NCBI GenBank assembly: GCA_009602735.1
Contig: WELA01002099.1
Coordinates: forward strand, 152,535 to 216,534
DNA from: Mesotaenium endlicherianum
Lineage: Eukaryota
DNA length: 64,000 nucleotides
Reading direction: 5' to 3'
Under the pieces are notes generated by a model. The model did no database searches. It saw nothing but the letters and a program-made list of their open reading frames with translations, and was not told the origin of the DNA. A program made the translations under genes and the position numbers. Positions 4,077-46,521 of this stretch are shown here, piece after piece. Position 1 is the first letter of the stretch. Each line of letters begins with the position of its first letter.

Positions 4077-4127
<51 letters not shown>

Positions 4128-6891
4128 CTACACTCGCCCACAGCCATGGGCTGACGACTGGAAGACCGCACATGCACACGCACATGCACACACAGGCCCA
4201 CACACCTACACACATTCGCATGCATCTAGACACCGTGCTGCGTGCGAATTGCTAAGGAGGAACGCGCATGTGAAATAAAGCCTTCACCTGACCGTCAGGG
4301 TCATCCATGTCACAGCTGTCTATTTCTTCAAGAAGTGAGAGAAACCACACGACAAAATTGAACAATCCAGCCGCACACTGACTGCCATGTGAAGCTCAGA
4401 CTTGAAGTGCACACGAGAAGGAGTGTCAGGTGTCAGGAGACGCACCAGCATGCGGTCAATGCCGAAGCCGTCAAAGGTGAGGCCTTGGAAGGAGACCTTC
4501 AGCTTGGAAGTGCCAAACACTCTGACTCCGTACATCGTGAGCGGAGGAGAGGCGCCGGTGAAGCCGATGGTGACGCTAGCGCCGGAGGCCTGGAACCTCA
4601 GGCTCTTCTCGATCTTGACTGTCGACGACACGTTGAACGAGGCGCGCACGACAATGACGTCGTTGGTGGCTGCGGCGGCGATGGCCCTCTTGAGCGTCAA
4701 CGCACTTACAACTGCCAAGAGAGGCAAGAGAAGATTCTTGAGCATTCTCTGAGACGGGCGGGGAAGGATTGACACCATTGGACATCCGCTGGGGACACTT
4801 TTGCATGGCATGGAGTAACTCTCCAGCGCCATTACTGCTAACATCTACACCAAAGTCGCAGGTCTACGTCGCAGCTGCAGCTCACCTGCTCCAAATGCAC
4901 TCATAGATACAGATTGTCAGAGGATGCAAACGACGTGGATCATGCACACACCACCCTCCTACCATAGGGCAGCGCCACACGATGCATACGCGTAGAAGAC
5001 AGCAGCTAATTACTAACTTCAATTCATGCAGCACATGCTGGGAGTACCTCCTGCTGAGCAACGAGGCGTGACAGACATGCCCTCTCGTGAACAAGGGCAA
5101 ATCGTCGCGAGAGAGTGACCTTCACACGCACGGCTCACCAACAAGAGCATTCCAACTGGCATGCTAGGCGGCAAGTCAGAGTGGAGGCGACGGAGAGATT
5201 GCTACCTTTGATTACGCATCGCTTGCCCTGAGCCACGTATCCGCTCTGACAGTAGCACGCGGCCTCCCCGTTGACCACCTCGCAAACCGAGTGGGCGCCG
5301 CATGCCACCCCCGTGCAGGAGCCTGAAGATTGAGAGAGCCACAGGCATTACACAAATGTACACGAGAATATAGATTTACATATATATGTTTTTACATGTA
5401 TCTGTTTTGTACTTCGTTCCTAAAGTAGAGCAGACGAGCTTGAAATCCAGCAAGGCGGTATTAGGTCCTATGTTACATCATAAGTGCAGGCCATGGGGAG
5501 AAGCATGGGGACTGGCGTGCATACCTCCCGCGGCGGTGCTCAGGAGCTGCCGGGAGCGGGGCCTGGCCATGGGCATGCGAGCGACTGGCATCATCTCAGA
5601 ACCCGCTCTGACGACGTCGAAATCCTTCACCTGTATGACCTCAGAGGACGGGGGCCAGTCAGCAGGGGCAGATAGGAGCAGGGAGAAGTGAGGCCGCTTG
5701 CAGTTTTCGAGACCTCGGAAGGTACTTGGAGGAAGGAAGAGTTGCCCTGTAGCACCAAATTAGGCCGGGGAAGAGGTAAAGAACTCATGCTCAGTAGATG
5801 TGAGGATTACGCAAGCCCACTTGCAGCAAGCGCGCGCAGGAGATGCCACGCACACATCCACCCGCCCACCCATCCACACGCACACAAACACAGACATTTT
5901 CACTCACCCGCTTGCGAGCTGCAGGGTCGTTGTCATCGTCGTCGTTCGGAGCTTTCATGCCAGCATCTGTCTCCGGAATCGTCCACCTCCACGGAGCATG
6001 CTCCAGAACGCGTTTAACGACAAAGGCCGCAGCCTGCGCCAGCAGTCCTGCCGCATGACCGAGCCCCTCCCGCTCTTGCTCCTGTTGCTGCTGCTGCTGG
6101 GAGTCAGATGGAGCCATATGCATCTCCTCCTCCTCCTCCTGCTGCTGCTGCTGCAGTCACAGCGTGCAATTTGCCACCGAAAGCGAAAGCTGCTAAGACG
6201 AGAGATCCAGGCTGCTTGTGTCAGGCAACTAGAAAGGCTGACAGCGCCTGATGACAGGCTTTCTGAAGGATGGCAAGTGGCACTTGACCTTTCAAGAATC
6301 AATCAGCTAGCATTATTTTGATTCCGTAGACACCTCGTATGTAGACGCAAATGAGCGTGCAGCTATTCACCAACGAGCATTAGCCATAGCAGACTAATTG
6401 GTTGACTATACCATTACCATGAATTATGATACATGTATATTACACTCCCATATGACAGACCAACGATGTAAAGAATCTAAGAGCATGTACAAGCGGAGTA
6501 TTGACACTCAGCAATTCTGAGTAACACATCCAAAAAGGTGGGAAAATCAGTTGACCAAAGGAGCACATGTGAAACTCCGGAGCATACACTACTCACTTTG
6601 GCATCAAGTGCAGCTTCATAGAAAGGGAAAAGTGAGGAATCCTGCTGATCATGCACGCCACCTTGAGACATGGCACCTCTTCTCCCAGCTGCACAATCAA
6701 AAAGCAAGTGCACAAGATGAGAATGGGACCGAGCGTACATTGGTGCAGTGGAAGTGCAGATAGCGGGTAACAAGTGCTGGAAACGCCACTAATTTTCACA
6801 GGACGTTGAGTCTACCTTCGGAAGATGCGGCCTGTGCGACCAAGGAATTGACTACAATGAGTATCATAAGTCTGCGAATCGCAGTCGCCAT
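1..6891 (-). CDS. Multi-exon host gene, 3' end beyond window start: putative secreted cell-wall glycoprotein with signal peptide, Pmp/pectin-lyase-like beta-helix region and extensin-like polyproline stalk
   Basis: Phase-consistent GT-AG exon chain read by hand: 6891-6816 (MATAIRRLMILIVVNSLVAQAASSE, signal-like), 6688-6597, 6150-5908, 5630-5525 (RQLL), 4711-4402, 4315-4288, 3661-3551, 3039-2950 (GAAL..VRDNFA), 2444-2337 (AAGGAL..FANN), 1907-1148 (Pro-rich), 347-<1 (SPPPP). The donors at 4401 and 2336 are weak, so some boundaries are uncertain. Confidence 0.65.
1300..1550 (-). repeat. Four imperfect coding tandem repeats (PPPQELAPPTAPG) in the Pro-rich exon
   Basis: Core ggggcagttggtggcgcaa recurs at about 1312, 1369, 1447 and 1519 on the + strand. 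Confidence 0.85.
4071..4125. repeat. (CG)n(CA)n microsatellite in a host-gene intron
   Basis: cgcgcgcgcgcg followed by about 18 CA units, inside a CA-rich low-complexity intron (3800-4230). Confidence 0.95.
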
Positions 6892-8429
6892 CCTAAGCTT
6901 GGCATTCGGTAACATCACAATCATCAACATTAAGAAGCATGAATGTGGACAGTGAGAGATGGACGTAAGAAGCCAAGCAATGAAGACGCGAATTCATGAG
7001 CAAAGTGCACTGCACTGAAGTAGTATTTCACTGTGTTTCAAACAATGCTATAGTCGCTGCTACACGCCCGCTGAAGCACTTACTCTGGACTGCTCTACTG
7101 TATATGCGCCCGGAATTGGTCGGACGTTTTCTATTCGCAGGTCCTTATTTGAGTATCCAATCAATTTTTATGAGCCCCCCATCTGGGGTTTGAAATAGTG
7201 CCGGGTCAGGCGGGCCGCGAGTATGACTGGGAGGGAAACCCGGCGAGTTGCGGCGAGGACTTTTGGGGACCTACGCTCCGTTCCTCTGTCGCACCCATCG
7301 TTGAGACTCTGGAGCAGCTAGGCCCTCGGTTTGACATAATTCCTGGATTTCGAAAACATCCTCTGCCCGACGTTTAGGTTTCAAAAAACATCCACCATTT
7401 GTAGTGCATTATATACGGCATAATAACATGCCACTATAGTCCTCAAAGAGATATTTTAGATTTGAAGTATCTTAAGAAACCTTGCCTCTCCGTTTTATGG
7501 GTCCCAGGTTCTTTAGATTCAACAAAACAAATAACACCAGATTTATTGCGAATCGAAAGATCTGTTCTGACCAGTTCTGGAGTCGGAACTGGGAAGCATC
7601 ACGTGCTTAATGACATTCTGAAACGCCCTGAGACTGGCTGAGATGGGCTGAAGCCTGAGATGGGCTGAGATAGGGGGGGACCAGGGGGGACCTTGATTGC
7701 GGTTTTCTTGGTTTGCTTTTCTATGTGGCTTTCTAATGTTCTACAGAAATGCTTCTGACAACTTTGATTGGGCTTGGCGGGCACAGCATGCCAGCCTCCA
7801 GGGTTTGTCCACGAGCGCTTGTCCTACACGGTCAACCAAGGTCGACCCATGCTACTACTTTGGCTCGAAGTTATTGAGCCAAAATATCAGTTTACATTGG
7901 TTTACATTGGTTTACATTCGTTCGCGTTAGTATACATCCATGGACGTTATTCGCCCAAAGAATGTCTTATCGTATGTTTTTGGCCTTTTGTTCCCACACT
8001 TCTTGGTCCCACTTGGTCCTTTCTCTTCAGTCGCCGTTAGGCGTGCGCCTCGAGACCACTCGAGAGACTCGTGACCACTCGTGACACTCAGTTCTCGTCT
8101 ACTTATCCTGCCACCGCCGCTGACCGCCACCAAGCCTACCCTAGGGCACACAAAGCTTGTCAGGCGTGGTCATGAGGGTGTCAGGCGTGGTCAGGATGTT
8201 GTCAGGGTGTTCTACGCGTGGGAATAGCACGAGATGGCGGGTGTTGAGGGTGCGGATCAGTGCGGTTGGATGGGGGGAAAAGGAAAAGAAGGATTGATTC
8301 GATAGAAAATGGAAATGGAATGGATAAAATATAAAATGAATATACAAAGCATGGGGTGGTAACTTGCGCTAATTTTCCAGATTTTATAATTTAGGCCCCT
8401 AAAATATTAAATTCTTCTTCATCCTTCTT

Positions 8430-8570
8430 CTAAGCCTCACGCTGAAGTCGGAGTCGCTCTGATTCCCGAGATAAGATGGAGGACAATTCGATGTCGCCGT
8501 GGAATTCCTTGTACTCCGCCTGTGCCTCGTCCGCTCTTCTTTTCCTCTTGAGTTCCGACTTCTGGGTCAT
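8430..8570 (-). pseudogene. Truncated, diverged ORF3 homologue of A0
   Basis: MTQKSELKRKRRADEA...SILSRESERLRLQREA* aligns by eye with A1 ORF3 TTQKEDRKRKAEEA...SLTRREQERVRKQQEA. Same position after pol, preceded by CACTAAC..AG. Confidence 0.65.
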
Positions 8571-8943
8571 CTTGCTCAAACAAAACACAAATGGAGTTAG
8601 TGAAGTCGTAATGTCGTGCACAATCATTGAGTCCTTGGACAGGTAAGAGCGTAGTAGTGAGAGTTACCGGGTTTGCAATACCCGGTGTAAGTAAGCGGAA
8701 AGTGGAACTGTGCTTGAGAGAGAAGTGCGTGTGAACGCAGTTTAGCGTGGAGAATGGATATCTAAAAGCAATTGGCTGGTTCCCGAGATGTTATCCCACT
8801 CCCTCCAACTTAATGTTTTAAGGTGGGCTGCTTGTCACAACTGTCACTTACTGTCACTAACTGTCACTTTCAAGCAAATTTCCCCTCTAACTTAAATGGA
8901 GATAGGACCTCCTGTCACCTTCCCATGTCAACTGAAATGACAG

Positions 8944-10104
8944 TTAAGGAGGTGTCTCAGTCTCCCGAGGGTAAAAGCGTTTCAACGCCCCTTTGGCATT
9001 GTTCAAATGATCCTTAAATTCCCAGGTGTCCCCAGAGGCATCATAACCCATCCATCTGACCAAATATTTCATGACAAATTTAGATGATCGACGAACAGAG
9101 CGAGCTTCTAAAATCTTGTCTACCTCATAATCCTCAGGGTCACCATCTTGGACAGCGGGGACCGGTCCCGGTTGGACAAGTAACCGATCTGTGAACAGTG
9201 TGTCACCCTTGATGTATGGTTCTAGGAAAGAGACATTAAAGACTAGGTGACCCTTGTATTCCGCTGACATGTTCAGTTTGTAAGCATTCTGACCGACATG
9301 GCGCACCACCAAATATGGACCAACCCAAATTGGGCAAAGCTTTTCCTTGACCACACCAGGCAAGTACAGGTGTCGAGAATGCAATTTGACCAAATCGCCC
9401 TTAGAAAATGTCAGCTCACGACGGTGTTGATTAGCATATTTTTGTTGATTTTCTTGGGCTTTGTGCACGTTCTGTTGGACCTCTGACATGGTGTCAGGAA
9501 ACTCTTGAGTTAACTGGAGAGACACCGGATTGTCAATCCCCTTAGGATGAGTTAAAGACTCCCCTACACATCCAAAGGGGACTTGGGGACTCTACCTAGA
9601 CTGAGTTCAAAAGGAGTCTTTGTCGTTGACGCATGCACCGCACTGTTGATCGCAAATTGAATTTGAGGCAACGGGTCATCCCAATTATTATGTTTTTGGT
9701 TAATATATGCTCTGAGCACCCCTTGCAGTACTCGATTAGTTCTTTCAGTCTGCCCATCAGTCTGAGGGTGGTTTGCTGTGTTGAGCCAGTGTTTGACTCC
9801 CATTAACCCCATTAAAGCTCTCCAGGACTTAGAGGTGAATTTTGAGTCTTCGTCCGAGATAATATTGTAGAGTAGCCCATGTTGGCATACTGCGTAGTTG
9901 TAGAACTGTCTCCCAATTTTGAGTGCAGTCACCTTGGCGGTGGTGGGGATGAAAATGACCATTTTCGTCAGTTTATCCACTACTACCAGGACGGAATTAT
10001 GCCCGTTGGCAGTTTTCGATAGTGTTACCACCCACTCCATGGATATTGTTTTTTATCGTCCAGCTGGGATGGGTAGTGGTTGTAATAGCCCTTCGGATGG
10101 TGTG
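8944..10104 (-). pseudogene. pol: A0 integrase core plus chromodomain, disrupted
   Basis: ORFs 9564-10040 and 8944-9525 ([27 protein letters not shown]) closely match A1 pol, with a premature stop. Confidence 0.9.
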
Positions 10105-10326
10105 TGAAAGGGGGAAGGGTGCGGGGAGTGCGCCCACACACACTCACGCACCCTCACCCGCGAGTGGAAGCGTGCACAAGGACCTTTCCTAGTTGCATAC
10201 ACAAGGTGGAGTGGCCTGGTGGTATGCCACCCTTGCAAGAGTTAGAGGGCTACATGAGAGGAGTGGAAAAGCACTCACTTTATTAAGAAAAGTCGTGTAC
10301 AAGTTAAGACGGTTAGACTAGACTAA

Positions 10327-11043
10327 TGAAATGAATCGACTTACCAAATAGGCGATTAACAATTAATAAAGATCTTTATATCAGCAAGTAATCTTATGGT
10401 ATTTCCGTTAACTAGTCAAACGGCAAAGGACAATACACTAGCAGGGAATAATACTTGTAAGTCAAATGCGAGTAAACTAGCATCAATGATGCAAGTCAGT
10501 AAACTCATACATAAGCAAGGTTAGAAGATAGTGCATATCAATGGCTTCTCGCCTTGGATTCAGAGTTCTCTCAGTAAGCTGTACAAGAGAGTTGGCCTCG
10601 TTTCCGAATGCCAAACTCGAGAGCAATGCCTAGCATATGTACATGGAATGAGTTTACTGTTCAACGGTCAGTGCGATGGCACCGCCTACCCGGGAGTTAA
10701 CCACGTTGGTAGGACCTCGGTTAACCAAATCCACCGCCATCTCCCATCATCCCGAATAGCCATCCATCATGGGGATGTCATCTGGCCATTCATCTAGCAG
10801 GTGGTACTTAGATGCATATCAAGGCAGTTCGCTGCTACCGAGCACGGAAGTCAGCTTGCTGTCAAAGAATGTGTCAGCAAGCTGACTTAAGTTGACTTCA
10901 GCCTGCTGCTTTCGGCCGAGTCATTAAACTGATAATTATGTAAAGTCCAGCAACTGATTATTAACTAAAGTTCAGCAGGCTGAACTTGATTAACTATTAT
11001 ATTTAAATGAATATTATATCCACTAATATACTGATTCATTACA
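10327..11043 (-). repeat. A1 3' LTR
   Basis: 717-bp direct repeat of 18399-19118, adjacent to the PPT. Confidence 0.95.
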
Positions 11044-11156
11044 ATCCCTCCAACTTAACTTGTTGTCGCCTCGACAACATTAAACTGCAGAAATTTTAAA
11101 TAAGGGAACTGAACCTGACCAGCCTCCCTTACTGACTGCCTCTTCAGCGTGTCACC

Positions 11157-12833
11157 TTAAGGGGTTGTTCCTGGGGCTTCAGGGTCAGGAGACGGAGATC
11201 TGGACCTAGATCTGGACAGCCCTCTAGGTCTGTCAGCTGGCCTTCTAAAGAACCCTGTTTGCTCTAAAGTTGGCCCTCGAGGAGAACGGAGGATGGTGGC
11301 CTGCTCTTCAACCACTTGGGTGTTGATTCCCACATAGACAGGCATTCCAGTAGGATGCTGAAATACATTGGCTAGAGGTACATGCCCCTGAGCGGAGGGG
11401 GAGGCTGGCATACCTCTGGCCCACCCGCGTGTCCCTCTTCTGGCACCCCTGTCCTCTGGGGATTTCTGTCTGTGTCTGCTGCCCAGTACCGTCAGATCAG
11501 CTTCTTCCCCTGCTTGGGCAGGTGGGCTGGGGGAGCGAGCGCGGGGTCCAGTTGTCGCCATAACGGGGATCACATTCCACAAACCTGATCGTGGTTCTTT
11601 AAGAAGTGCCACTGCCTGTCCCTGGGTATCCTGAGTACCCGCTGCTGATGCTTCTCCTTTGCCTTGTTCTCCTTCCTCATCCTCCTCATCCTCCTCTTCG
11701 GAAAGAGTAGGGGTCTCGTCCACGAAGTCGTCCTGCTCCCTAGTAGACATGGAGTAGTCTACCGACCTCCCTTTCTTAGGGCGCGCTGGAGGTTGCTTGG
11801 CCTTCAGCCTACTGATATCTATCCGGCCTGCATTCTTTGCCCATTTGACAAAGGCATGCTTTCCCTTAGAGAAGTACTCTCTTCCCCTCCTCCTATGTTC
11901 CTTGGTCTCTGCATTCATATTGCTCAGGCATCCATTCAGCCTGGGGTCCCAAGGGGCAATGTGAGGTGGTAGGATGAGATAGCCGTCTAGGCCATAGTGG
12001 AAGTCATCCGGTTGGGCTCGGTCACACTCCTGCTTCTTATTTGTGACGGTCATCCACCTCCAGTCTGTTGGCTGCTGGTAGTACTGGGGTCCGTGCTCAG
12101 CCTTCCTCAGTTTACACGGGAACCAGTGGGGAGAGAACATCTGCTGTCCTGCTTCCCTGGCCAAGTACTCCCAGCTCCTTCTTTCAACTTCATTGTAAGC
12201 TGACAGGAGTGTGAGGTAGAATACCGTATCCTTAAAGCTATCGGGCCGCATGCTCACCATCCGGATGAGTCTCTGATCTCCCACTATTCCCGGTATGGGG
12301 ACCGGCTTGTCTTCTGAATCATCTGCGAGATACCGGGCCTGCTCTGCTGTATAGCCCACCATCTTAGCATAATCTTCGTAAAGGACCACGCCGGTGTGTG
12401 TCTCGATGTACCTGTCCAGTGCTGTAGCTCCTTCCTTCTGTAGCAGTGTTGTCTGTTCCAGCCTGTTGATCTCCTGGGCTGCCAGCAATGCTTCCTTCAG
12501 GTTATCGAAGTTTTGGCCACCCACCACAGTATACCTGTAAGTGGCCAAGCTCTTCTGTCTGTCCGCTTCAATCTTTTTTCTTTTCTCCTCTTCTGCCGCT
12601 GCCGCTTCTTCTTGCTGTTTCTTCTGTCTCTCCTCCTCAGCCTTCCTGAGGTTTTCCGCTTCCTGATCCTTCTTCCTCTGTGCCTCTTCTGCCGCCTCTT
12701 GTTGTTTGCGGACCCTTTCTTGTTCTCTCCTGGTGAGGGACGTCGCCGCCAGCTCCTTCTGGTATTGCTCCATTGTCCTCCTGGCTTCTTCTGCCTTGCG
12801 CTTTCTGTCCTCCTTTTGTGTGGTGGGCGCCAT
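11157..12833 (-). CDS. Accessory ORF3 of A1 (558 aa from ATG 12833), function unknown: basic NLS-like/coiled-coil N-terminus, aromatic-rich core, acidic tract, RS/SP-rich tail
   Basis: Uninterrupted frame between the pol stop and the PPT. Homologous frames at 40645-41890 and 8430-8570. Confidence 0.85.
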   Translation of the reverse strand: MAPTTQKEDRKRKAEEARRTMEQYQKELAATSLTRREQERVRKQQEAAEEAQRKKDQEAENLRKAEEERQKKQQEEAAAAEEEKRKKIEADRQKSLATYRYTVVGGQNFDNLKEALLAAQEINRLEQTTLLQKEGATALDRYIETHTGVVLYEDYAKMVGYTAEQARYLADDSEDKPVPIPGIVGDQRLIRMVSMRPDSFKDTVFYLTLLSAYNEVERRSWEYLAREAGQQMFSPHWFPCKLRKAEHGPQYYQQPTDWRWMTVTNKKQECDRAQPDDFHYGLDGYLILPPHIAPWDPRLNGCLSNMNAETKEHRRRGREYFSKGKHAFVKWAKNAGRIDISRLKAKQPPARPKKGRSVDYSMSTREQDDFVDETPTLSEEEDEEDEEGEQGKGEASAAGTQDTQGQAVALLKEPRSGLWNVIPVMATTGPRARSPSPPAQAGEEADLTVLGSRHRQKSPEDRGARRGTRGWARGMPASPSAQGHVPLANVFQHPTGMPVYVGINTQVVEEQATILRSPRGPTLEQTGFFRRPADRPRGLSRSRSRSPSPDPEAPGTTP

Positions 12834-13100
12834 CCTGCACATGTAACCAGGGCACAAGTTAGTAGGATATGGACCTTTGTCATAGGGATTGCAGGAAGTA
12901 TGTTAGTATTTAGTATAGTGGCTTCGCTGCTGTTTACCTTACAGGATGATTGCTAAAAGTTGACGTAGTTGCGATGCGCTACACATAAACGTATGAGTGT
13001 GTTTTTATCGCTCTCGCTCACTAACTGTCATATATTTTCCCCTCCAACTTAAATGGAGACAGGACCGCCTGTCACCTTCCCGTGTCAACTGAAATGACAG

Positions 13101-16100
13101 TTATGGAGGGACTCCAGCGGCCCGAAGGTGGAACCGTGTCAACGCCCCTTTGGCATTGGTCAAGTGGTCCTTAAACTCCCAAGTGTCCCCAGAGGCATCG
13201 TAACCCTTCCATCGAATGAGGTATTTCATGACATATTTAGACGATCGACGGACCGAGCGAGCGTCTAAAATCTCATCGACCTCATATTCCTCAGGGTCGC
13301 CGTCCCGGACAGCGGGGACCGGTCCCGGTTGGACAGGGAACCGACCTGTGAACAGTGTATCACCTTTGATGTACGGTTCCAGGAAGGAGACATTAAAGAC
13401 CGGGTGCCCCTTGTATTCAGCTGACATGTTCAGTTTGTAAGCATTCTGACCGACACGACGGACCACCGAATATGGACCGACCCAGACAGGGCCAAGCTTT
13501 TTCTTGACCACACCAGGGAGGTACAGGTGCTGAGAATGCAGTTTGACTAAATCCCCCTTGGAAAATGTCAGTTCCCGACGGTGTTGATTAGCGTATTTTT
13601 GTTGGTTTTCTTGGGCCGTGTGCAAGTTTCGTTGGACTTCTGACAGGGTGTCAGCAAACTCCTGAGTTAACTGGAGGGAGACCGGGTTGTCAATCCCTTC
13701 AGGGTGAGTTAAAGATTCCCCTAGCACATCTAGAGGAGACTTAGGGACTCTACCCAGGCTGAGTTCAAAAGGAGTTTTGCCCGTTGACGCGTGCACCGCA
13801 CTGTTGACCGCAAACTGAATTTGAGGCAACAGGTCATCCCAATTATCTTGTTTTTGGTTAATATATGCTCTCAGCACCTCCTGCAGAACTCGGTTAGTTC
13901 TTTCAGTCTGCCCATCAGTCTGAGGGTGGTTTGCTGTGCTGAGCAGCTGTTTGACTCCCATTAACCCCATTAAAGCTCTCCAGAACTTAGAGGTGAATTT
14001 TGAGTCTCTGTCTGAGATGATATTAGAAGGGAGCCCATGTTGGCATACTACATGGTTGTAAAACTGTCTCGCTGTTTCGAGTGCAGTCACTTTGACAGTT
14101 GTGGGGATAAAAATGACCATTTTTGTCAGTTTATCCACGACTACCAGTATTGAATCATGCCCGTTGGCAGTTCTTGGTAGTGAGACCACCCAGTCCATGG
14201 ATATAGTTTCCCAGCGTCCCGCTGGGATGGGTAGCGGTTGCAAGAGACCTCCGGGTGGTGTGTGCCGAGACTTATTTCTCTGACACTGGTCACAGGACTT
14301 GACATATTTCAAGACCTCCCGGGGTAACCCCTCCCAATGATAATGTTTTGCCAGTTTGCCAACAGTTTTGGCCTGCCCCAAATGTCCACCCAGGAGACTG
14401 TCATGAGCTTGACTCAGTAAGAGAGACCTTATTTCCAAGTTATTAGGAATGACCAGCTTCAGCCTGCCTGAAGTGGTTTCAGTCACCCAGACCCCTCCCT
14501 TGAGCTTATACCCGAGTGCAGTAGCACGACACACACCAGTAGTGGGGCTGGGCTCAAATGTTGGGTCAGAAAGGTAGGCTTTCCTAAGTTGTTCAAGGAA
14601 GGACTTTTTCACCTTTAGTGAAGTGAGTGCACACAGGACTTTATCTACAGCATGCTGACTAAAGTTCCTTTCTTGCAAGTCAGGTCTTCTAGAGAGTGCA
14701 TCAGCAGGATTCAACTTCCCTGGTTTGTAGTCGATCTGGACTTGGAACTGCTCCAGCATCTGGCTCCAGCGGTTCTCCCTCCTCGACAGCTTGGACTTCT
14801 TCTGAAAGTGGGTCAGAGCTAGATGATCTGTAATCACCTTAAAAGCTTTACCATGTAAGTATGCTCTCCACTGTTTGAGTACATGAATGATAGCTAGCAG
14901 CTCTTTATCATGCACTGAGTAATTAATCTCCGCTGGATTAAATTTCATAGACTCATACAACACAGGATGCCACTCCTGCCGTACCTTACCATCCTTTGTG
15001 GTTTTGTCAGCAGGCTGCAACAAAATAGCACCCATGGCAAAATCAGAGGCATCAGTAACCACCTGCACCGGTTTGCTGGGGTCATACACGGCTAGCACTG
15101 GGGCAGAACAAAGGGCATCTTTAAGGGTCTGGAAGGCAGCCTGCTGCTCTTCCCCCCACACATACCCGATGTCTTTCTTAGTAAGGTCAGTCAGTTTACT
15201 GGCCTTTGTGGAATAATTCTCAATAAATCTCCTATAGTAGTTAGCCAACCCGAGGAAGGATCTAACTTCAGAGACAGACTGTGGTACTGGCCAGTCCCTT
15301 ATGGTCTGGACTTTCTTAGGATCCACACTGATGCCCTCTTTACTGACAACGTGGCCTAAGAATTCAATACTTTCCTTAAAGAAATCACACTTGCTCATTT
15401 TAGCATACAAGTGATTTTTCCGCAGAGTGTCCAGCACTTTCTTTAAGTGTTCAGTGTGCTGAGCTTCATCTTTAGAGAAAATTAAAATATCATCCAGGAA
15501 AACTTGCACAAACTTATCCAAATAAGGTCTGAAAATGTCATTCATAGCACCCATAAAGGTAGCAGGAGCATTAGTCAGTCCAAATGGCATCACGTTGAAC
15601 TCATAGTGTCCATAACGTGTGCGGAAAGCAGTCTTGTGTTCATCCCCCTCAGCAATTCTGATTTGATGATAACCACTCTTGAGATCTATCTTACTGAACA
15701 CCTTAGCGCCAGACAGGGTATCAAGCAAGTCCTCGATTCTGGGTAAAGCATACTTGTTCTTTACTGTAATTCTGTTCAGGGCTCTGTAATCCACACACAT
15801 CCGCATACTGCCATCCTTTTTCTTAACAAATAGGATAGGTGCGCCGTACGGTGATTTACTGGGAGAAATGTAACCATTTTCCTCCAGCTCTGCAATCTGT
15901 GTTTTCAACTCCTCGCTCTCCAAATAAGACAAGCCATAAGTGCGTTGCCAGGGTGGCTGGCTACCAGGTAATAGATCAATCCTATGATCTACTTCCCTTT
16001 TAGGGGGTAGTCCTGGAGGCATGTTAAACACATCAGTGTACTGAGCAACAATTTTTGCAGCAGTAGGGTGCTCCGGAGGGCTTACCTTTTTCTCAACCAC

Positions 16101-16910
16101 TTCTTCAGGTTGAGGAGGTACCTCTCTTAGCAGCAGACAGAACATTCTGTCTTCCTTCTGGTTCCAGCTTTTGACGAACTCCATTGCATTCAGCAACTTG
16201 CATCCTTCTGGAAGCCTCTTCTTTTCCTTCATTTGCCATCCACACAGGACAAGAGGAAGAGCACTGGTGGGTGCCAAGTCAGTCTGCCCATCACTGGCTC
16301 CTCTCACTTTAACTGTACCTCTGCTCCAACACACTTCAGCTTGATGTCTATTAAGCCAGGACCTGCCTAGCACGAGATCATAAAAGCCAGTGTTGAGTAC
16401 CTCAAATGTAAGCGTTTCAGTTAGAACTGCAATGCCAGAACCTAACTGGACCTCAATAGGCTTGGTTATAACTCCTCCCGGGATACTTGAGGCATCTCCA
16501 AGGAATATTTTTCTATTCCCTTGGGTGACAGTAGGCAGCCTTAGCCGCTTAACTAAGTCCTTGTGAATAAAAGTATGTGACGCCCCTCCGTCAACAAATG
16601 CCCTCACCTTCCTACCTGCAATCATGCAATGCAGTAGGATAGGGGGGACTGTCTTTTCCTGACTTTCGCATTGTTCTCCTGACGTAGCAAAGAAATGTTG
16701 GACATCAGGTGGAACAAGAGCATCCAGAGTGTGCACTCTCTGGACGTCTATATTACTGATGGTCTCCTTTATCTGTTTGTCAGGCATGCATAGTGAATCC
16801 AGTTCAGCAGGACCCATAATACCTGCTACGAGGGCAGCTAGTGACGACTCACTATCTCTAGCATCCTCATAGTCAGTAGTCTGGATTACTGACTGTTGCT
16901 GTCTTTTAAA
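13101..16910 (-). CDS. pol: A1 Pol polyprotein (protease, RT, RNase H, integrase, chromodomain), probably expressed by -1 frameshift
   Basis: [75 protein letters not shown] order indicates Ty3/Gypsy. Confidence 0.97.
16858..16910 (-). promoter_or_regulatory. Putative -1 programmed ribosomal frameshift signal
   Basis: U UUA AAA heptamer in the gag frame (16910-16904), a 9-nt spacer, then the stem AGTCAGTA/TACTGACT. pol is in the -1 frame. Confidence 0.75.
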
Positions 16911-18364: not shown

Positions 18365-18398
18365 ACAAAGAAGACTGTGATAACTGCTCCGATACCAC

Positions 18399-19118
18399 TG
18401 AAATGAATCGACTTACCAAATAGGCGATTAACAATTAATAAAGATCTTTATATCAGCAAGTAATCTTTATGGTATTTTCCGTTAACTGGTTAAACGGCAA
18501 AGGACAACACACTAGCAGTGAATAATACTCGTAAGTCAAATGCGAGTAAACTAGCATCAATAATGCAAATCAGTAAACTCATACATAAGCAAGGTTAGAA
18601 GACAGTGCGTATCAATGGCTTCTTGCCTTGGATTCAGGATTCTCTCAGTAAGCTGTACAAGAGAGTTGGCCTCGTTTCCGAATGCCGAACTCGAGAGCAA
18701 TGCCTAGCATATGTACATGGAATGAGTTTATTGTTCAACGGTCAGTGCGATGGCACCGCCTACCCGGGAGTTAACCACGTTGGTAGGACCTCGGTTAACC
18801 AAATCCACCGCCATCTCCCATCATCCCGAATAGCCATTCATCATGGGGATGTCATCTGGCCATTCATTTAGCAGGTCGTCCTTAGATGCATATCACGGCA
18901 GTTCGCTGCTACCGAGCACGGAAGTCAGCTGGCTGTCAAAGAATGTGTCAGCAAGCTGACTTAAGTTGACTTCAGCCTGCTGCTTTCGGCCGAGTCATTA
19001 AACTGATAATTATGTAAAGTCCAGCAGACTGATTATTAACTAAAGTTCAGCAGGCTGAACTTGATTAACAATTATATTTAAATGAATATTATATCCACTA
19101 ATATACTGATTCATTACA
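18399..19118 (-). repeat. A1 5' LTR
   Basis: 720 bp, followed by the PBS on the - strand. Confidence 0.95.
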
Positions 19119-22100
19119 ACTAACTAGACTAGACTCCCTCTACTTCTTTGTGCTTCCCATTTATGCTTTAACTCTAAGTGTCCTCTTTAGCAAAGTACCT
19201 CCAGAACCTTCTACTATGGCTCCTTCCAATGTAGGTGACCTTGCCTAGTTGGACAAGCTAGCACACTCACACGCACGCTATCACACACTAGAATATTCCA
19301 CTACACAATCCACTAACTCTTCACGAACTTTCTAGAAATTCCACGATCACTTTGGCACTCTACGTAGTTTTTGGAACCCTCGTGTTTCAATGTCCTACTT
19401 TGTGGACTCCAACCGAAATTTCCGTCACTGAACCTGTCCTTGTCACTAATTTGAATCTGTGACACTAAAAACTCACTAAAAATTCTCAAAATTCATAACT
19501 TTCTCAATACTTGTCCAAATGACTTGAAATGAAGGCCAAAGTTCTTCTAAAATCACACTCTATGCATTTAAAATATTAGAAAGATACAAACTACAATTCA
19601 ATAACCTTACATCATCCCCCTCCTCAAGATGCGACGTCCTCGGCGCATACTAAGCATAAGTGACGTCATATGAGGAATCGAGCTCACATATACGCTACAT
19701 AACACACATACACATTTATTATACAAGTTGCAGGTCTTGAACAGGCTCCAGGATGATACTCATTACTCCAAACTTGCTCCACTTAGTGAAAGCTCTATCG
19801 CATACATTGGCTCCACACATGGCGTCTCCTTACACAAGTGCATTTTCTCTTCAACTCCTTCGTCTTGGAATAGGCCAATATCTTCATAAGGGCTGTAACA
19901 TACTCCCTCCATCATCTCCACATACTCCAAAGCTGGATCCAAGGCATAATAGTCCGCCAAATCGCCAAAATACTCATTCTTCGCCCTCTTGGACAAGTGG
20001 CAACTCCTCGTCGCGCCATGTGGCTTACTCGTGGTGCTCTTATAATAGACTACATCATGAACCTAAGTCCACTATGTTCCTGAACCTTCTAGTACCCTTA
20101 GCTACCTCTAGCTCTAAGCCATACTCCTTGTAGAGGTATTGCACTCTCTCAGTCGTGTGCGTGACTCGTGGTGACCTCTCAAGACGCCAAGTGGCACCCC
20201 CCTGACTTTTTCTGACATTTTTAGCCTCAAAGTTGTGCAATCTACATAGTATCACCCCTCTGAACTCACTGGTATGCTCGGTTTCCCCTGATTTTAAGTC
20301 TAAGACCATAAAACCAGATTACGCCTTGCCTCACACATGTGGCTCCCACGGCAGTCCAGCAGACCGCCATGTGGCACTGTCAGAACTTAATTTAAATATT
20401 TTCATAAAATAAATTTATTTTTCTAAATCTGAACCCATAGGACTACCTCTCCACAAAATTTCAGAATCTGAATCAAAGTCTAACACTCAAACGAGATCGT
20501 CACTTTGTGCCTCACGCTCGTAGGACGTACACGCGCGCAACACGTATCAAGCTCCCGCGCCTACAAATGGCACATGCTTAAACCCCTAACTTTGAAACTT
20601 GACTCTGACTCAGGGCAGGCCTCATACTAGGCCTCTCACATCATGTAGGACTTCTAGTGAAGATATTATCCACTCATTTCTAAGTAGGCAAAAAGTAGCC
20701 AAAAGCTGCCAACTTTAATCCTCGCGCTCGCCTACCCATAAAACCCTCAAACATGGACAGATTTGAGTATCCACTATAAACAACTATAACACTCTCCCCC
20801 CTCATCATGAAGGTAAGGCGCTTACCACTCGAGTGTCCAAGTGCATATTTTACGCCTCTCTCGTGCTTGCTTGTATAGGCGCTGATTCTCCTAGCTTCAT
20901 GCACTGGTCTTTGTCATGTATCTCCATCTTAGGCAGGACATATCAGCCCCATAACACTTGGTCTCCTCCTCATAGGTCCATATCCATAAAGTCGTAGTCT
21001 CCATCAAGCGACGATAGTAACCTTCACAAGGCATGAGCGCGTAGTCTCGCTCGTGGTGCACCAAACTCCATCATAGTCTTCTTCTTGGCTAGATGCTCAC
21101 TCCCACATACTTCTGGCTCTTCTTGAAGGTCAACCTTTACACAAGGCTCCAAGAAACACATCTGGAACGCCTCCAAGAGCTCCATAACTTGGGCATACGC
21201 ACATACTCTTAGTGCTTGCACCTCATCTTGTGCACGCACACACGTCGTCTTGCAAGCGGGCTTCTCTTGAGCTCACTTTCTAGGAGCTCCTCCACTTGAG
21301 CAGTTGGGGTCTGCTCTATATATGAGCAAGGGGATCATACACCTCTACTTGCTCCACCGGCGATGCGCGCTCGCCAAGGTTGTTAGGAGGCACGCTTGCT
21401 CCATGCGATTTCCGGGCCAAGGTCACCAAAACAAGTGCTTCTCCTTCACCTTCACCTTCCCGCGTCGCTTCTTTGCTAGCGGGCTGAAGATAGCTACTTG
21501 TGGTCTTATCTATCTCCACCTATTTCACTATCTTCACTTGACCATACTCCTCCTTGGTCTTCACTTGACCCGTGCACTAAAGCACTAGAGGATAGGCTAC
21601 TCTCTTTGTGCAACTCCTTCCACATGCTTAGCTTCTTGAGTGCACTCTAGCCTTGGTCACCCCAATGACACTTCTTACTACTAAACCCAGCTTGCCTTGG
21701 TGCTCTACTTTCACATGAAGAGCTTCCATAGATGCACCAAAATTTGCCCCTTAACTATGCCAACACACAACTATTGGCACACGCACTTCAAGTGGGAGAC
21801 ATCTCTTGCACTAGCCCTCTTGCACCACCTTCATACCTTGCTTCTTCTTCCACACCATAGGCTTGTCTTCATCATAGTTCTCAACTTCATATACTCTGTA
21901 GTACTCTCCTCCATAGAAAAGAGAAATCTGAACTTGAAAGGCTCCATCTCCATCTCTACTCTTTGAAGAAAACATCTGCGTCACTTCTTCTTGCTCCAAG
22001 CCTCCCCCACGGCGCTTTTCTTCACTTGAGGCTTCATCAATCTCCATAAGAATGACCAAGCTCCATCATGGCTGGCCAACAATACCCAGTGGCTATGTAG

Positions 22101-39839: not shown

Positions 39840-42800
39840 TGAAATAAATCGACTTACCAAATAGGCGATTAACAATTAATAAAGATCTTTATATCAGCAA
39901 TTAATCTTTATGGATTTTCCGTTAATTGATTAAACGGCAAGAGGACAACACACTAGCAGTGAACAACAATTGTAAATCAAATGCAAGTAAACTAGCATCA
40001 ACAATGCAATCAGTAAACTCATGCATAAGCAAGGTTAGAAGACAGTGCGTATCAATGGCTTCTCGCCTTGGATTCAGATCTCTCTCAGTAAGCTGTACAA
40101 GAGAGTTGGCGTCGTTTCCGAATGCCGAACTCGAGAGCAATCCTTAGCATATGTACATGGAATGAGTTTACTGTTCAACGGTCAGTGCGATGGCACCGCC
40201 TACCCGGGAGTTAACCACATTGGTAGGACCTCGGTTAACCAAATCCACCGCCATCTCCCATCATCCCGAATCGCCATCCATCATAGGGATGTCATCTGGC
40301 CATTCATCTAGCATACCACACTTAGATGCATATCGAGGCAGTTCGCTGCTACCGAGTACGGAAGTCAGCTGGCTCTCAAAGAATGTGTCAGCAAGCTGAC
40401 TTAAGTTGACTTCAGCCTGCTACTTCCGGCCGAGTCATTAAACTGATATTAAATATGAAGTCCAGCAGACTGATTATTAACTAGAGTTCAGCAGGCTGAA
40501 CTTAATTAACTATTATATTTAAATGAATATTATATCAACTAATATACTGATTCATTACAATCCCTCCAACTTATCATGTTGTCGCCTCGACAACACTATC
40601 ACTAATAACAGCGTGCTGTCCCTTTTGTCCCCATCCTACTGCCATTAGGAGGGAGATGTCCCTGAGGCTCTATACTCAGGGGAGCCAAATCTCCTCCTGT
40701 CTTGGGGTCTTCTGAAGCCTGTCAGCGAGGGAGGTTCCGTGTAAGGACCCGGCGGAGAACGCAGTAACTGGGCTGTTTCCTCCTGCACAGTCTGAAACTG
40801 AAGGGAGGCAGCCTCCTCTTGGGCAGCCCTCAAACTGACAGGTACGTAAACCGGCATCCCAGAAGGATGTTGCATGACATGAGCCAAGGGTACATGCCCT
40901 CTCTGCGAGGGAGATGCTGGCAGGCCTCTGGCTATCTCCCGAGCAGCCCTCCTGTCTGCCCTGTCTGACTGGGTCACCTTGCCTGGAGATGGGGTCTGTC
41001 TTCTGGCAGTCCCCAGCCAAGTGATATCCTCCTCTTCAGCGAGCTGCTGCAGGGCCGACTCAGTCTTCTCCCTTACAGGGGATGTGGCAGGCGTCAGGAT
41101 CACGGCGGGGCTAGTGTCCTCCTCCTCGCCTTCCTCCTCGTCTTCCTCTGACTCCTCCTCCTCGCCGTCCCCGGGTTCCTCTGAGACTTCTGGGGTCTCC
41201 TCTGTCAGCTGCTCCAGCTCTTCCCGAAAAAAAGAATATCCTACTGACCTTCCTCTTTTGGGTGCTGGTGGGGGCTGCTGAGTCCGGACCGCATAGAGGT
41301 CCTTTTCCCCCTGCTTACTTGCCCATTTGGCATAAGTGTGCTTCCCTTTGGAGAACGAGTCTCGGGCCTTGCTCCTGTCCCCCTGCATTTCTTGGCTCAT
41401 GCAGTCTCTGACTCCATCCAATCTTGGGTCCCAAGCCGCAATGTGAGGGGGCAATACTATGTTCCCCTTTAGGTCTGTCAGGAAATCCTCATCCGTCGCC
41501 TTGTCATTCTGCTGGTCCCTCATGTTGATGGTCATCCACCGCCAATCAGTGGGCTTTTGGAAGAAGGCAGGGTCTGTCCTTTTAAGAGTACAAGGGTACC
41601 AGTGCCCTGCAAAGTCCAGCTGACTGGTTTCCCTGGCCAAGAATTCCCAGCTCCTTCTCTCCACCTCATTATACAGGGCCTTGAACCTGTTATGGGGTGT
41701 TGAGTCCTTGAAGCTGTCCGCGTCCATGGGGATCATCCTGATGACCCTATCTTCCCCCAAGATACCAGGAATCGAGACAGCCCCTGCTTCGTTCACCTGA
41801 GCCATTGCCTTGGCCTCTCTGACCGTATATCCTACCATCCTGGCGCAATCGTGGTAGAGGAGGAGCCCCGTGCTGACCTCTATATACTTGTCCTCAGCCT
41901 GGTCTCCTTTAATTGCATTGTAGGAACCGTGGGGCTTTTTGACAATCTTAGACACCAAAGCATTACGCTGGCGCTTGTGATTGAACTGCTGCTGATCCCA
42001 GGCATAAGGATCCTGGATCAAGTCAGCCAATTTCTCGTACTTCTTCTCAGCGAAATGACTAGAGACTTCGGATTTCAAGCCATACCTGAAGTATGCTATC
42101 CTATACCGTTCTGGCAAGTCTTGCTGCTTCATCATGTTCTCCTGGAACTTTTGAGCAAACTCAGCAACTGAAGTCGTCTGCTTCAGTGTCAGGGAGATCA
42201 TCGCGTAGATAGCTTTCTCCTGCTAGTTGATGACATCAAATTTCTCATGCAACTTATCGACAAACTCTGCCCACGTAGGGTCACCGAGTTGCCGAGCCTT
42301 ACGCGCTCCTTTCCAGTGAAGCCACCAGTCTGCGGCACTGCCTTTCAATAGCGCACCGGTGTGCCTGACCTTCTCGTAATCTTGCAGTTCTGGGTAGTTC
42401 TCCAGCCACTGCTCAACATCCGCGAGAAACTTGATCAGGTAATATTTTCTGTTTCCCTCAGGATCATATTCCTGGGGAGGTTTCGGCTTGGGCTTACTAG
42501 GCCCTCGGCCACCACCACCAGTGGTGTGAGACCCCAGTTGGTCTCTGTCCCGCAGTAGGGACATTATGATTCTTTTGTCCTCCTGCTGGGACTGATACAT
42601 GGTCGCCATTTGCGACTGCATCTGAACAAACAATGCTCCCAAGTCTACACTCTTGGGTGGTAGTCTAGCAAATGCAGCAGTAGCATTGGCATCTACTCGC
42701 TGAGTAGTGTCCTCAACTGTCCCTCTCGCTCCTGCAGCAGCAATTCCTGCCGCATTCAGCCGGTCACGTATTTGACCTAGGGGTACATTGAGTTGTACAG

Positions 42801-43885
42801 CAGGAGGTGGGTTCAGAACATTGGCCCTTGGTGCCATGAGTTCTTCATCAACGCGCTCGTCAGCTGGCTGTCTTTCCCTCCTTTCTGTATCTTCAACGGC
42901 CTTTGCTAATTGTTCAATTTCTAGTCTGGCTCTCTCCTCCTCAGCTTGCTGTGCTGCGACTGCGGCTATAGCAGCTGCCTCATCTGCAGCCTCTCTAGCT
43001 GCAGTATCTGCCACTGCTTCAGAATGGGTACGGGTTCTCGCTACATAACTTTCCGCCTGGTTTTTGACATTCTCGTTATCCTGGTTCTCCATGTCTCGGG
43101 AGTTGCTAGTTTGAGACCTTGTCCTTACCATACGAAGAAGACTGTGATAACTGCTCCGATACGACTGAAATAAATCGACTTACCAAATAGGCGATTAACA
43201 ATTAATAAAGATCTTTATATCAGCAAGTAATCTTTATGGATTTTCCGTTAATTGATTAAACGGCAAGAGGACAACACACTAGCAGTGAACAACAATTGTA
43301 AATCAAATGCAAGTAAACTAGCATCAACAATGCAATCAGTAAACTCATGCATAAGCAAGGCTAGAAGACAGTGCGTATCAATGGCTTCTCGCCTTGGATT
43401 CAGAGTTCTCTCAGTAAGCTGTACAAGAGAGTTGGCGTCGTTTCCGAATGCCGAAATTGAGAGCAATCCTTAGCATATGTACATGGAATGAGTTTACTGT
43501 TCAACGGTCAGTGCGATGGCACCGCCTACCCGGGAGTTAATCACGTTGGTAGGACCTCGGTTAACCAAATCCACCGCCATCTCCCATCATCCCGAATCGC
43601 CATCCATCATAGGGATGTCATCTGGCCATTCATCTAGCATACCACACTTAGATGCATATCGAGGCAGTTCGCTGCTACCGAGTACGGAAGTCAGCTGGCT
43701 GTCAAAGAATGTGTCAACAAGCTGACTTAAGTTGACTTCAGCCTGCTACTTCCGGCCGAGTCATGAAACTGATATTGAATATGAAGTCCAGCAGACTGAT
43801 TACTAACTAGAGTTCAGCAGGCTGAACTTAATTAACTATTATATTTAAATGAATATCATATCAACTAATATACTGATTCATTACA
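39840..43885 (-). mobile_element. Family A deletion derivative A2 (LTR, gag::ORF3, LTR; no pol)
   Basis: 720-bp LTRs at 39840-40559 and 43166-43885. Perfect TSD ATTGA. PBS variant TCGTATCGGAGC. Confidence 0.95.
40645..43131 (-). pseudogene. In-frame Gag::ORF3 fusion (828 codons) with one premature TAG at 42223-42225
   Basis: ORFs 42223-43131 and 40645-42201 share a frame, and the TAG corresponds to a CAG in A1. Junction GDQAED|KYIEVSTG at about 41890. Confidence 0.88.
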
Positions 43886-46521
43886 ATTGAGTGGCTGTTT
43901 TGTTAGAATTGCTTTAGACTGCATACCCATTAGACGTTGTTGCCCGTCAGGATGAAATCCGAGGCCTGGAGCACCAACCTGGAGAAACCCTATGATGCTC
44001 AGACACCGGTTTAGCAAACAAATTCAAAATACAGGTCTATTCTTAGGGGTGAATGATGCTTGCTTCCATTACATGCGAGGTATGCCAATCCTCCAGGATA
44101 AGCTGCAACAGCAATTTGCACTATCCGATCCAACTAAATGCACGTTGGTCCAAATCCGCGCATGGGCGAAACAACTAGAGATGGTGGCAGCAGCGATTGC
44201 CTCATGACGTCATTTCACTAGATCATTATCCTTGTCCGCTCATGTTGTTTTGGTACAGCCTACTCTGACTATCCTGATGGGAGCCGCTCCAGCTTCAGCA
44301 CCTAAGCGAGTTATTTGCGATCACTGCAAGCGACGAGGTCACTCTTTGCCAGACTGGTACCAGTTGTATCCGCACAAAGCCCCTGTCAGATGGGTCTACC
44401 GCGCGCCAAGGACAACTCTTACGTCGAGTGCTCCGGTTGTACCAGCTGCGGTCGCCCAGATGCCACCCCTACTACCACCACTCCAGGTCGGTTCTTCCTA
44501 CTTGGAAGGGGCACAAGGAGCAGGCCAAGCCGTCTAGCCAGCCGCTCCTGGTACAATGCCTGGTCCGGCCCACCCAGCCAACGAGTTCTACGTCCGGCAG
44601 CAGCTTGCAACTCTCGAGGCAAGTCTACAAGACATGCATTGGCGCGTTGGGTCCCAGCCGGATCCAGTCAGCTACGTGGGGCTCCACCCTCAGCCATGGG
44701 CATACCCAGATAGGCCCTTTCCATACCCTCGTCCACCCGACTTTGCATGCTGTGTGTCAGACGAAGTTGGTGCATCTGGTGGGGAGCCAGGGTTGGCTGT
44801 TCAAACTCGGCGAGTGTCTTGTGTAAAAACTAACGCGTCGATTTGGCCTACCCCGCTAGGTCCGGACCACGGACGTCCTCTGGGTAGGCCCACTCAACAG
44901 TTTTCTTGTTCTTTTGAGTATTTCGGTGCCGACATGGATCCGCCTTTGGTTGGTATCAGTGCTACGTCTCTCTCCATGCGCATGGGTGGGGGGAGCGCAG
45001 GTATCCTCCACATTACGCCAGTCAAATTTCCGGCAGCACAAGCCCATGCACATGCGATTTGTGATAGTCTATAAGCAAGTGCGTCGAACAAAAATTGCTC
45101 CTACCACCTTCCTACGCCCAGATGGTAGCAAACCTGTCCAAAGCATTCCTTGCCACAAGCTGCACCGATGTGGCACCTACTATGGCTACCATTTTGGTCC
45201 TCCAAATGGACTCGATTCCAATTTCCCTTTCTGATTACTCTGCTGATTCTTGGACAGCGACTGTTTCGTATGATATGCCCTACATCGTTACGTCTATTTT
45301 AAGGGAAGTGCGCTACGCTGCATTCACCATGGGGCTTCGCTCCGCTTACAATACACTACCTGGTCCTGTCACAAAAAGTACCGTGTCTCTTGCACCTCCA
45401 AAGGTGGTTGATCCACGTGTGCCGCCTGTCGTGCCTGCTAGCGCGTCCAAATCTTGATTCATTCCACCACCTCCAGATCAGCTGGTCACCCTGCTGGCGT
45501 TCCTCACTGCGTTGCCTGTTCTTTCTGTGGCTCAGTTAGTACAGGTGCAAGCCCACATCACTTGTGAGTTCGCCCGGCGCTATTTTGACGAAGCATCGAC
45601 TTCCTCGTCCATGCCTGAGCTCACCCGTACCAACACCGCAACTTTCAGATGGGGGAGGACGTCGACGCACCACGCGAGGAGAATGCTGCCGTCCTATCGT
45701 CGTTCCTGCTCGCTCAAGACATGACCGCCTTGTCAACCTCAATCGTCACCGCTCTCCCGCCTCTAGCTCTTCCTACCCCGGGTAAGCTTTCACTTGCCGC
45801 TCCCGCGTTCATGCCCACTTCTGGTTTGCAGGTTCCTTTCAAGTATGAGCCGACAACTTCTTTCCTCAGTCCAACAGCTCAACAGTCACCATTCCCACAA
45901 AACACCGTGCTAAACAACCGCCATGCGTGCTTTTTGATTGCGGGTCTAGCACCTCAAGTAGTTATCCTGAATATTGGGGCCCAACCGGTTTTGCTTGGGG
46001 CTGTCATGTGCAAGCACCCAGGTCTCTCTCCTGCTGATTTAGAACCTTGTCCAAATCCAGTTTCAACAGCCATGTCAGCTGATAACCATATTGCATTTCA
46101 AACGCGTAGACGCTTACCAATCACCCTTAATTCACACACCTCCGCCGCTGTCACCCTCTACGCCCAGTGTATGGTTACTAAATCTACTTCCTATGACGTC
46201 CTCCTTGGCCAAGAGTTCAACTTCCTCACGGGTCTTACATAGATTCGTGGCACGGATACTCTACATACCGCCTATCAAGCAGCAGAATTACACGTCTGAT
46301 ATCTCCCAATTATCTTCACTCATTCTAACTCTACCGTTCCTATCGCTTATACCGTCCACTCTGAACCTTCGTCAACTGCCACCCAAACCAAGATCAAGTT
46401 AGCTTCAGACCAGCCCATCGCTCCACTTGCTGGTTCCCCACTTCCTCCTCTGCCGCTTCCTCCCTCGTGCGCTCCAGCTCTCCACACCAGCCCTATTAGT
46501 TGGTCTTCCTCTCCCGCCGAT

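Follow-up and report, generated by a model that had tools for sequence, protein, structure and literature searches.

An orphan third gene without envelope features, under purifying selection, in a chromovirus of Mesotaenium endlicherianum

Introduction

Extra genes of long terminal repeat (LTR) retrotransposons have often been recorded but almost never understood. Additional open reading frames (ORFs) lying in the sense direction between pol and the 3' LTR, termed aORF-3S, are a described kind (Vicient and Casacuberta 2020, PMC7264820). The premise of an initial annotation of the DNA studied here, that chromoviruses usually encode only gag and pol, is fair, yet it has to be read beside these earlier descriptions. 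Here we analyse ORF3, a third gene of an intact Ty3/gypsy chromovirus (A1) in Mesotaenium endlicherianum. A1 lies on the minus strand of a 64,000-nucleotide stretch (GenBank assembly GCA_009602735.1, contig WELA01002099.1, positions 152,535 to 216,534), hereafter the window, whose first letter is position 1. ORF3 shares with the aORF-3S genes, as PMC7264820 describes them, its position and orientation, its probable carriage by an element family, the lack of a database relative and the presumed need for a separate message. As a case it is clean: an intact element carries a gene that is selected and modular, lacks envelope features and has no relative anywhere searched.

The reading we prefer, to which we give a little less than an even chance, is that ORF3 is a selected, non-envelope third gene encoding a soluble, nucleus-directed helper of the element's replication, associated with nucleic acid or with ribonucleoprotein. 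That ORF3 is a real protein-coding gene is held with far greater confidence.

Results and Discussion

ORF3 is a protein-coding gene under purifying selection

The sense ORF of 558 amino acids that had been annotated between the chromodomain and the 3' LTR is present as described. It runs to 561 amino acids from its first ATG, and the shorter length corresponds to the second ATG (12833), which stands in the better context (A at -3, G at +4). The frame begins 258 nt 3' of the pol stop (13101) and ends 98 nt before the polypurine tract (PPT) and the 3' LTR. A tblastn search of the window at E up to 0.001 found only one homologue besides A1 itself, in a second element, A2, whose ORF3 part (41991-40651) is 41% identical to that of A1 over 473 aligned positions. 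Over 393 aligned codons the proportion of differing sites is 0.78 for synonymous (pS, saturated) and 0.33 for non-synonymous positions (pN), with a non-synonymous rate (dN) of 0.44; 49% of aligned residues are identical while synonymous sites are saturated. The core shows 50% identity over 216 codons, also with saturated synonymous sites, and the ratio of non-synonymous to synonymous rates (dN/dS) in the C-terminal block is about 0.13.

The initial annotation had further held that a set of motif blocks is kept in both A2 and a more decayed copy, A0. For A2 this stands: all nine blocks scanned occur in A1, and A2 has eight exactly and the ninth with one substitution. It does not stand for A0, where ORF3 is reduced to a 64-amino-acid N-terminal fragment with none of the scanned blocks; a lone hexamer with one mismatch, at 6272-6289, is about what chance would give.

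Selection is also visible among near-identical copies of ORF3, found as contigs of runs X1, X3, X6, X7 and X9 (five coded organism labels) among 20 matching rows from 7 studies. The variants listed for these copies, in 40 of 75 rows, include 30 sites within ORF3, of which 19 are synonymous and 11 non-synonymous, where 8.5 synonymous would be expected (Poisson-binomial P = 5.6e-05), and none of them is an insertion or deletion. The density of listed variable sites is 1.7 per 100 nt within ORF3 and rises to 10 per 100 nt over the 98 non-coding nucleotides on its 3' side. None lies in residues 470-504 of the C-terminal motif; codon 505 carries two, both synonymous, and V510M falls just outside the motif. 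ORF3 is under purifying selection, and we regard it with high confidence as a genuine protein-coding gene.

The ORF3 module is older than the backbones that carry it

Wherever a window copy retains sequence 3' of pol or ahead of the 3' LTR, ORF3 or a remnant of it is present (three of three: A1, A2 and the A0 fragment). A2 had been taken for a further element with a homologous third ORF; it is instead a pol-deleted element in which gag residues 1-414 continue in frame into ORF3, entering it at about residue 143, with neither pol nor the gag zinc knuckle. It is flanked by its own 4-bp target-site duplication (TSD), TCAA, and has therefore transposed in this pol-deleted fusion form. As A1 also bears a 4-bp TSD, transposition of elements carrying ORF3 is recorded at both copies.

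Divergence in ORF3 far exceeds that of the LTR-gag backbone around it. Between A1 and A2, gag shows a synonymous rate (dS) of 0.117 and a dN of 0.041, the LTRs are about 93% identical, and, past the saturated ORF3, the two elements are again highly identical from 38 nt ahead of the 3' LTR. Faster protein evolution cannot explain synonymous saturation beside so young a backbone, and old ORF3 lineages must have recombined onto related backbones. In A0 the pol tail (8854-10106, minus strand, upstream of the ORF3 remnant) is 86% identical to A1, with dS 0.47, and the ORF3 N-terminus reaches just 36% identity. Contigs of runs X3, X6, X7 and X9 part from A1 exactly at 13039, past the internal PPT, and continue in A0-like sequence. 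Judged from these alignments, ORF3 behaves as a module that has been exchanged between element lineages by recombination.

Run X1 yields 7,029 contigs at 88% identity or more for window positions 11045-13100, and their depths add up to several hundred thousand. Either the family that bears ORF3 has a very high copy number or this run over-represents it strongly.

A wider proposal, which we consider doubtful, is that ORF3 founds an undescribed nuclear accessory family. Its ancient allelic cassettes would be swapped between near-identical chromovirus backbones in the manner of retroviral env and, in non-autonomous derivatives, could occur as fusions to Gag, and the product would act in trans either to decide which elements replicate or to escape host control. 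Unlikely, and a shade more so, is a role in counter-defence, in which the ORF3 product antagonises host silencing or restriction and continual change in the host preserves old allelic lineages and shuffles them between backbones. Such a role would suit the occurrence of at least three ORF3 lineages within one 64-kb window, the deep divergence of those lineages on near-identical LTR-gag backbones and the A0-type continuations from 13039 in other organisms (X3, X6, X7, X9). The non-synonymous variants listed also cluster, 7 of the 11 falling in the linker (residues 373-421). Saturated synonymous sites, however, speak of age rather than of fast adaptive change, the core and the C-terminal motif are under purifying and not diversifying selection, ORF3 has no similarity to any known suppressor, and its depth is zero in three poly-A runs.

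ORF3 has no detectable relative outside elements

A phmmer search of ORF3 against 1.84 billion protein representatives gave no match at E up to 0.001, and a word-indexed protein search with the whole of ORF3 and with words from residues 125-350 gave none among proteins of 308-982 amino acids. Pfam, queried at E up to 10 with ORF3 entire and in four pieces, returned sub-threshold noise only (Borrelia_P83, DUF6462, HsdM_N, TraI-like_C and CDC45), and nothing among PDB sequences fell under E = 0.088. In the ESM Atlas the best match to A1 residues 100-360 reached 0.90, with 124 of 256 features shared, and A2 had no usable match. None of 227 pattern matches in metagenome contigs, and none of 62 in viral contigs, was confirmed as a relative. 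The suggestion that ORF3 represents an undescribed family agrees with the absence of a detectable relative in any library searched, and this absence does not prove novelty, since eukaryotic transposon ORFs may be sparse in these libraries. The chromovirus and green-algal element literature searched, PMC3350952 and PMC6317226 included, yielded no account of a gene like this, in a search that lay outside Repbase-type libraries.

Two particular affiliations were considered and rejected. A CUT or lambda-repressor-like domain was raised by the best PDB match, HNF6 (E = 0.088, 15.6 bits), and no Pfam CUT match appears at E up to 10. Descent from a duplicated gag or pol was tried with hhalign, which gave a probability of 0.2% against each.

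That ORF3 might be a captured host or foreign gene, open for a time and with no part in transposition, is improbable. In its favour, GC content at third codon positions (GC3) is 0.57 in A1 and 0.63 in A2, above the 0.49-0.50 of gag and pol and towards the GC of the flanking DNA (0.62). The PPT motif TTAAGTTGGAGGG moreover flanks ORF3 at either end, as would result from insertion of a segment between PPT and LTR. This motif occurs five times in the window against 0.04 expected (13040-13052, 11046-11058, 8801-8813, 8883-8895 and 40562-40574, minus strand): in A1 once after pol and once before the LTR, in A0 twice after pol, and in A2 once before the LTR. The duplication would fit a scar of ORF3 insertion behind the PPT, or a second plus-strand primer. 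Against a mere passenger stand the want of any relative outside the element among the protein representatives and other libraries, purifying selection across synonymous-saturated lineages that all lie inside elements, and the retention of ORF3 in frame by A2, which is pol-deleted and yet has transposed.

The ORF3 product is hydrophilic and lacks envelope features

The N-terminal basic cluster, acidic tract and arginine-serine-rich tail that had been noted in ORF3 are all present, as RKRK, a tract of net charge -15 and an RS/SP-rich end (Table 1). Basic clusters occur at residues 13, 56, 87 and 317, and the linker between the acidic tract and the C-terminal motif is rich in Pro, Ser and Gly. 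Where a coiled coil had also been proposed, AlphaFold2 predicts a long helix for residues 8-107, with block values of the predicted local distance difference test (pLDDT) of 74-92 over residues 11-100. Per 100 residues the helix has 24 D/E, 28 K/R and 12 hydrophobic residues, with 25 opposite-charge pairs at i/i+4, and because 52 charged residues stand against only 12 hydrophobic ones it resembles a single charged helix more closely than a classical coiled coil.

The env position and sense orientation of ORF3, and the existence of chromodomain elements with env in Cnidaria, Mollusca and Annelida reported in PMC13524379, could point to a gene of envelope or movement type that has degenerated, comparable to those of errantiviruses or to the env-like extra ORFs of plants. 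This is very improbable. As had been maintained in the initial annotation, the protein is not env-like: the highest 19-residue Kyte-Doolittle mean is 0.73 in A1 and 0.85 in A2, the first 25 residues average -1.81, and the sequence scan finds no N-x-S/T sequon and no furin-type R-x-K/R-R site. Neither a signal peptide nor a membrane anchor shows in a plain hydropathy scan, the method used here in place of SignalP or TMHMM. The same absences hold for A1 and A2 alike, no env family matches in Pfam at E up to 10, and the scan of hydropathy, sequons and furin sites effectively refutes an envelope origin. A long frame left open by chance in a young insertion, which would suit the lack of RNA reads and of database relatives, is less credible still and is excluded because ORF3 is open in two synonymous-saturated lineages that keep 49% amino-acid identity, and because close copies independently show the synonymous excess given above.

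Proposed role of ORF3

How ORF3 would serve the element can be proposed only tentatively, and less firmly than the reading as a whole, because the support is compositional. The RKRK and KRKK clusters and the basic stretch at residues 321-360 suggest that the product may be soluble and directed to the nucleus, and the basic stretch with the RS/SP tail that it may associate with nucleic acid or ribonucleoprotein. The charged N-terminal helix could act as a spacer or an oligomerising part, to judge by its composition. Acting in trans, the protein might aid replication of the element, for example in RNA handling, particle assembly or nuclear entry, and would be translated from a subgenomic or spliced mRNA. 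Such a message would be needed because three upstream ATGs and four stops lie between pol and ORF3.

Several observations weigh against the helper reading. The alignment is shallow because the window holds only two full homologues, and on this two-sequence alignment AlphaFold2 gives a mean pLDDT of 43 for the full-length protein and 34 for the core, with confidence confined to the N-terminal helix. The RS tail and that helix are the least conserved parts of ORF3, and the helix is wholly absent from A2. The higher GC3 is a weak hint that would also fit a foreign origin. The variant figures rest on the variants listed, 40 of 75 rows, and the copies concerned are related, so their variant sites are not independent events. 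Finally, three poly-A RNA-seq runs from organism A, each sampled to 6-12% (1.0-1.8 billion letters), show a depth of 0 over 11045-12934 and contain no splice joint leading to ORF3.

This zero depth is weak evidence for silence in those samples. In the same runs the gag and pol of A1 are covered at 0-4x, and most LTR reads continue into unrelated sequence. Reads leaving the LTR or leader at 18296 and 18399 (11-57 per run) pass into single uniform sequences absent from the window, and these exits therefore represent chimeric transcripts from other loci and not splicing to ORF3. LTR fragments elsewhere in the genome belong to expressed chimeric transcripts. Inspection by eye suggests candidate splice sites, namely a GT immediately following the ATG of gag and, ahead of ORF3, two TACTAAC motifs each with an AG, and these have no supporting read. 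Run X3 covers the whole of A1 at flat depth and is probably DNA rather than RNA. A spliced antisense transcript may account for three poly-A reads of run X23 in which 159 nt are skipped at window positions 14854-15014, with GT..AG borders on the plus strand, antisense to pol.

The initial annotation had proposed a nuclear accessory protein, such as an anti-silencing factor, a splicing or export regulator or a targeting factor; these putative roles draw on composition alone (basic clusters, RS/SP tail and acidic tract). By the refuting conditions that this annotation set, dN/dS is well below 1, no characterised protein matches and no expression was detected, which leaves the finding unrefuted. 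If the role of ORF3 were found, it would show what a retrotransposon needs beyond gag and pol, and could give a handle on how such an element deals with the nucleus or with silencing in its host.

The host element and its surroundings

A1 is 8,793 bp long, with LTRs ending in TG...CA and a 4-bp TSD (Table 1). Its pol matches RVT_1 (2.1e-41), RT_RNaseH (1.9e-33), Integrase_H2C2 (2e-18) and SH3_Tf2-1 (4.3e-15) in Pfam, and a Chromo domain at residues 1178-1230 (E = 2e-08) lies C-terminal to protease, reverse transcriptase, RNase H and integrase. The closest named relatives of this pol, at 37-52% identity, are from Closterium, seed plants and Haematococcus; taken with the GC-rich flank and its Ser/Pro-rich frames, they make a green-algal host likely. 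The primer-binding-site-like sequence TGGTATCGGAGC at 18386..18397 appears to resemble the initiator-Met tRNA site of plant elements. The pol frame is -1 relative to gag, is open from 16931 and overlaps gag by 45 nt, and a -1 frameshift is likely to occur at the candidate heptamer T TTA AAA (16904-16910). The 15-mer context of this heptamer recurs at 59302-59316 and, with one mismatch, at 37723-37737, in two other copies.

Table 1. Positions of ORF3 and its parts, of the host element A1 and of related copies in the window.
Feature	Position	Strand	Remarks
ORF3, 561 aa	11157..12842	-	between chromodomain end of pol and 3' LTR, sense
ORF3 residues 8-107, RKRK basic cluster then long charged helix	12522..12821	-	AlphaFold2 and composition
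ORF3 residues 125-350, conserved core with YNEVERRSWE, HWxPC, PTDWRWMT, LPPHIA.WDPRL, FSKGKH	11793..12470	-	A2 alignment
ORF3 residues 361-400, acidic tract, net -15	11643..11762	-	preceded by basic stretch 321-360, net +11
ORF3 residues 470-505, C-terminal motif PASPS..GHVPLA.V.QHP.GMPVYV	11328..11435	-	A2 alignment, dN/dS
ORF3 residues 543-561, RS/SP-rich tail	11160..11216	-	loosely kept in A2
3' LTR of A1	10327..11044	-	21 differences from 5' LTR in 718 aligned bases
PPT motif TTAAGTTGGAGGG adjoining 3' LTR	11046..11058	-	same 13-mer as internal copy
pol-ORF3 spacer	12843..13100	-	4 stops in ORF3 frame; 3 upstream ATGs (8-, 15- and 128-codon ORFs)
Internal PPT motif TTAAGTTGGAGGG	13040..13052	-	directly 3' of pol stop
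pol, 1238 aa counted from first ATG	13101..16817	-	protease, reverse transcriptase, RNase H, integrase, SH3, chromodomain, in order
Slippery heptamer T TTA AAA, candidate	16904..16910	-	inside 45-nt gag/pol overlap
gag, 492 aa	16886..18364	-	Pfam Ty3_capsid 4.3e-10, Retrotrans_gag 2.6e-08, zf-CCHC 8.4e-04
Primer-binding-site-like TGGTATCGGAGC	18386..18397	-	1 nt past 5' LTR
5' LTR of A1	18399..19119	-	96.7% identical to 10327-11044 (blastn of element against window)
TSD TTAG of A1	upstream copy 19120..19123, downstream copy 10323-10326	-	flanking sequence
Element A2, pol-deleted	39840..43886	-	LTRs 39840-40560 and 43166-43886, 14 differences in 721; TSD TCAA
A2 gag(1-414)::ORF3 frame, 828 codons	40645..43131	-	one internal stop, 42223-42225
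A0 ORF3 N-terminus remnant	8403..8579	-	36% identity over 64 aa, one stop

The remainder of the window from 19120 to 64000 is a nest of Ty3/gypsy copies, several of them truncated members of the A family (such as those on the plus strand at 53343-58402 and 58406-62187). Another chromovirus family, at about 23283-29431, has no third ORF and includes 884 consecutive N (24524-25407). The flank at 1-4225 has a GC content of 0.59-0.65 (65% over 1-2000), with GT microsatellites around 3860-4220 and long Ser/Pro-rich frames that resemble hydroxyproline-rich glycoprotein repeats and have no Pfam match.

Comparison with known systems

The caulimovirus P6 or transactivator-viroplasmin protein is a soluble protein of about 500 amino acids encoded directly after pol, with N-terminal helical self-association, basic RNA-binding stretches, nuclear signals and its own message. 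ORF3 is like it in architecture only, and Pfam at E up to 10 matches it to no caulimovirus family. GENE23 of the maize element Grande, compared by its description in PMC7264820, is likewise an accessory protein without database relatives for which a nuclear role has been proposed; it lies antisense to gag-pol, whereas ORF3 is in sense orientation.

The env genes of errantiviruses, including the chromodomain-bearing ones described in PMC13524379, resemble ORF3 as third ORFs placed after a Ty3/gypsy pol with a history separate from gag-pol. ORF3 differs from them in having no signal peptide, membrane anchor, sequon, cleavage site or match to an env family. The plant aORF-3S examples, in the account of PMC7264820, are mostly env-like with transmembrane segments and belong to non-chromovirus lineages, whereas ORF3 is hydrophilic, is carried by a chromovirus and shows module exchange. 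ORF3 is a well-supported orphan gene, a non-membrane, selected and modular example of the sense extra ORFs already described, and not a new kind of system.

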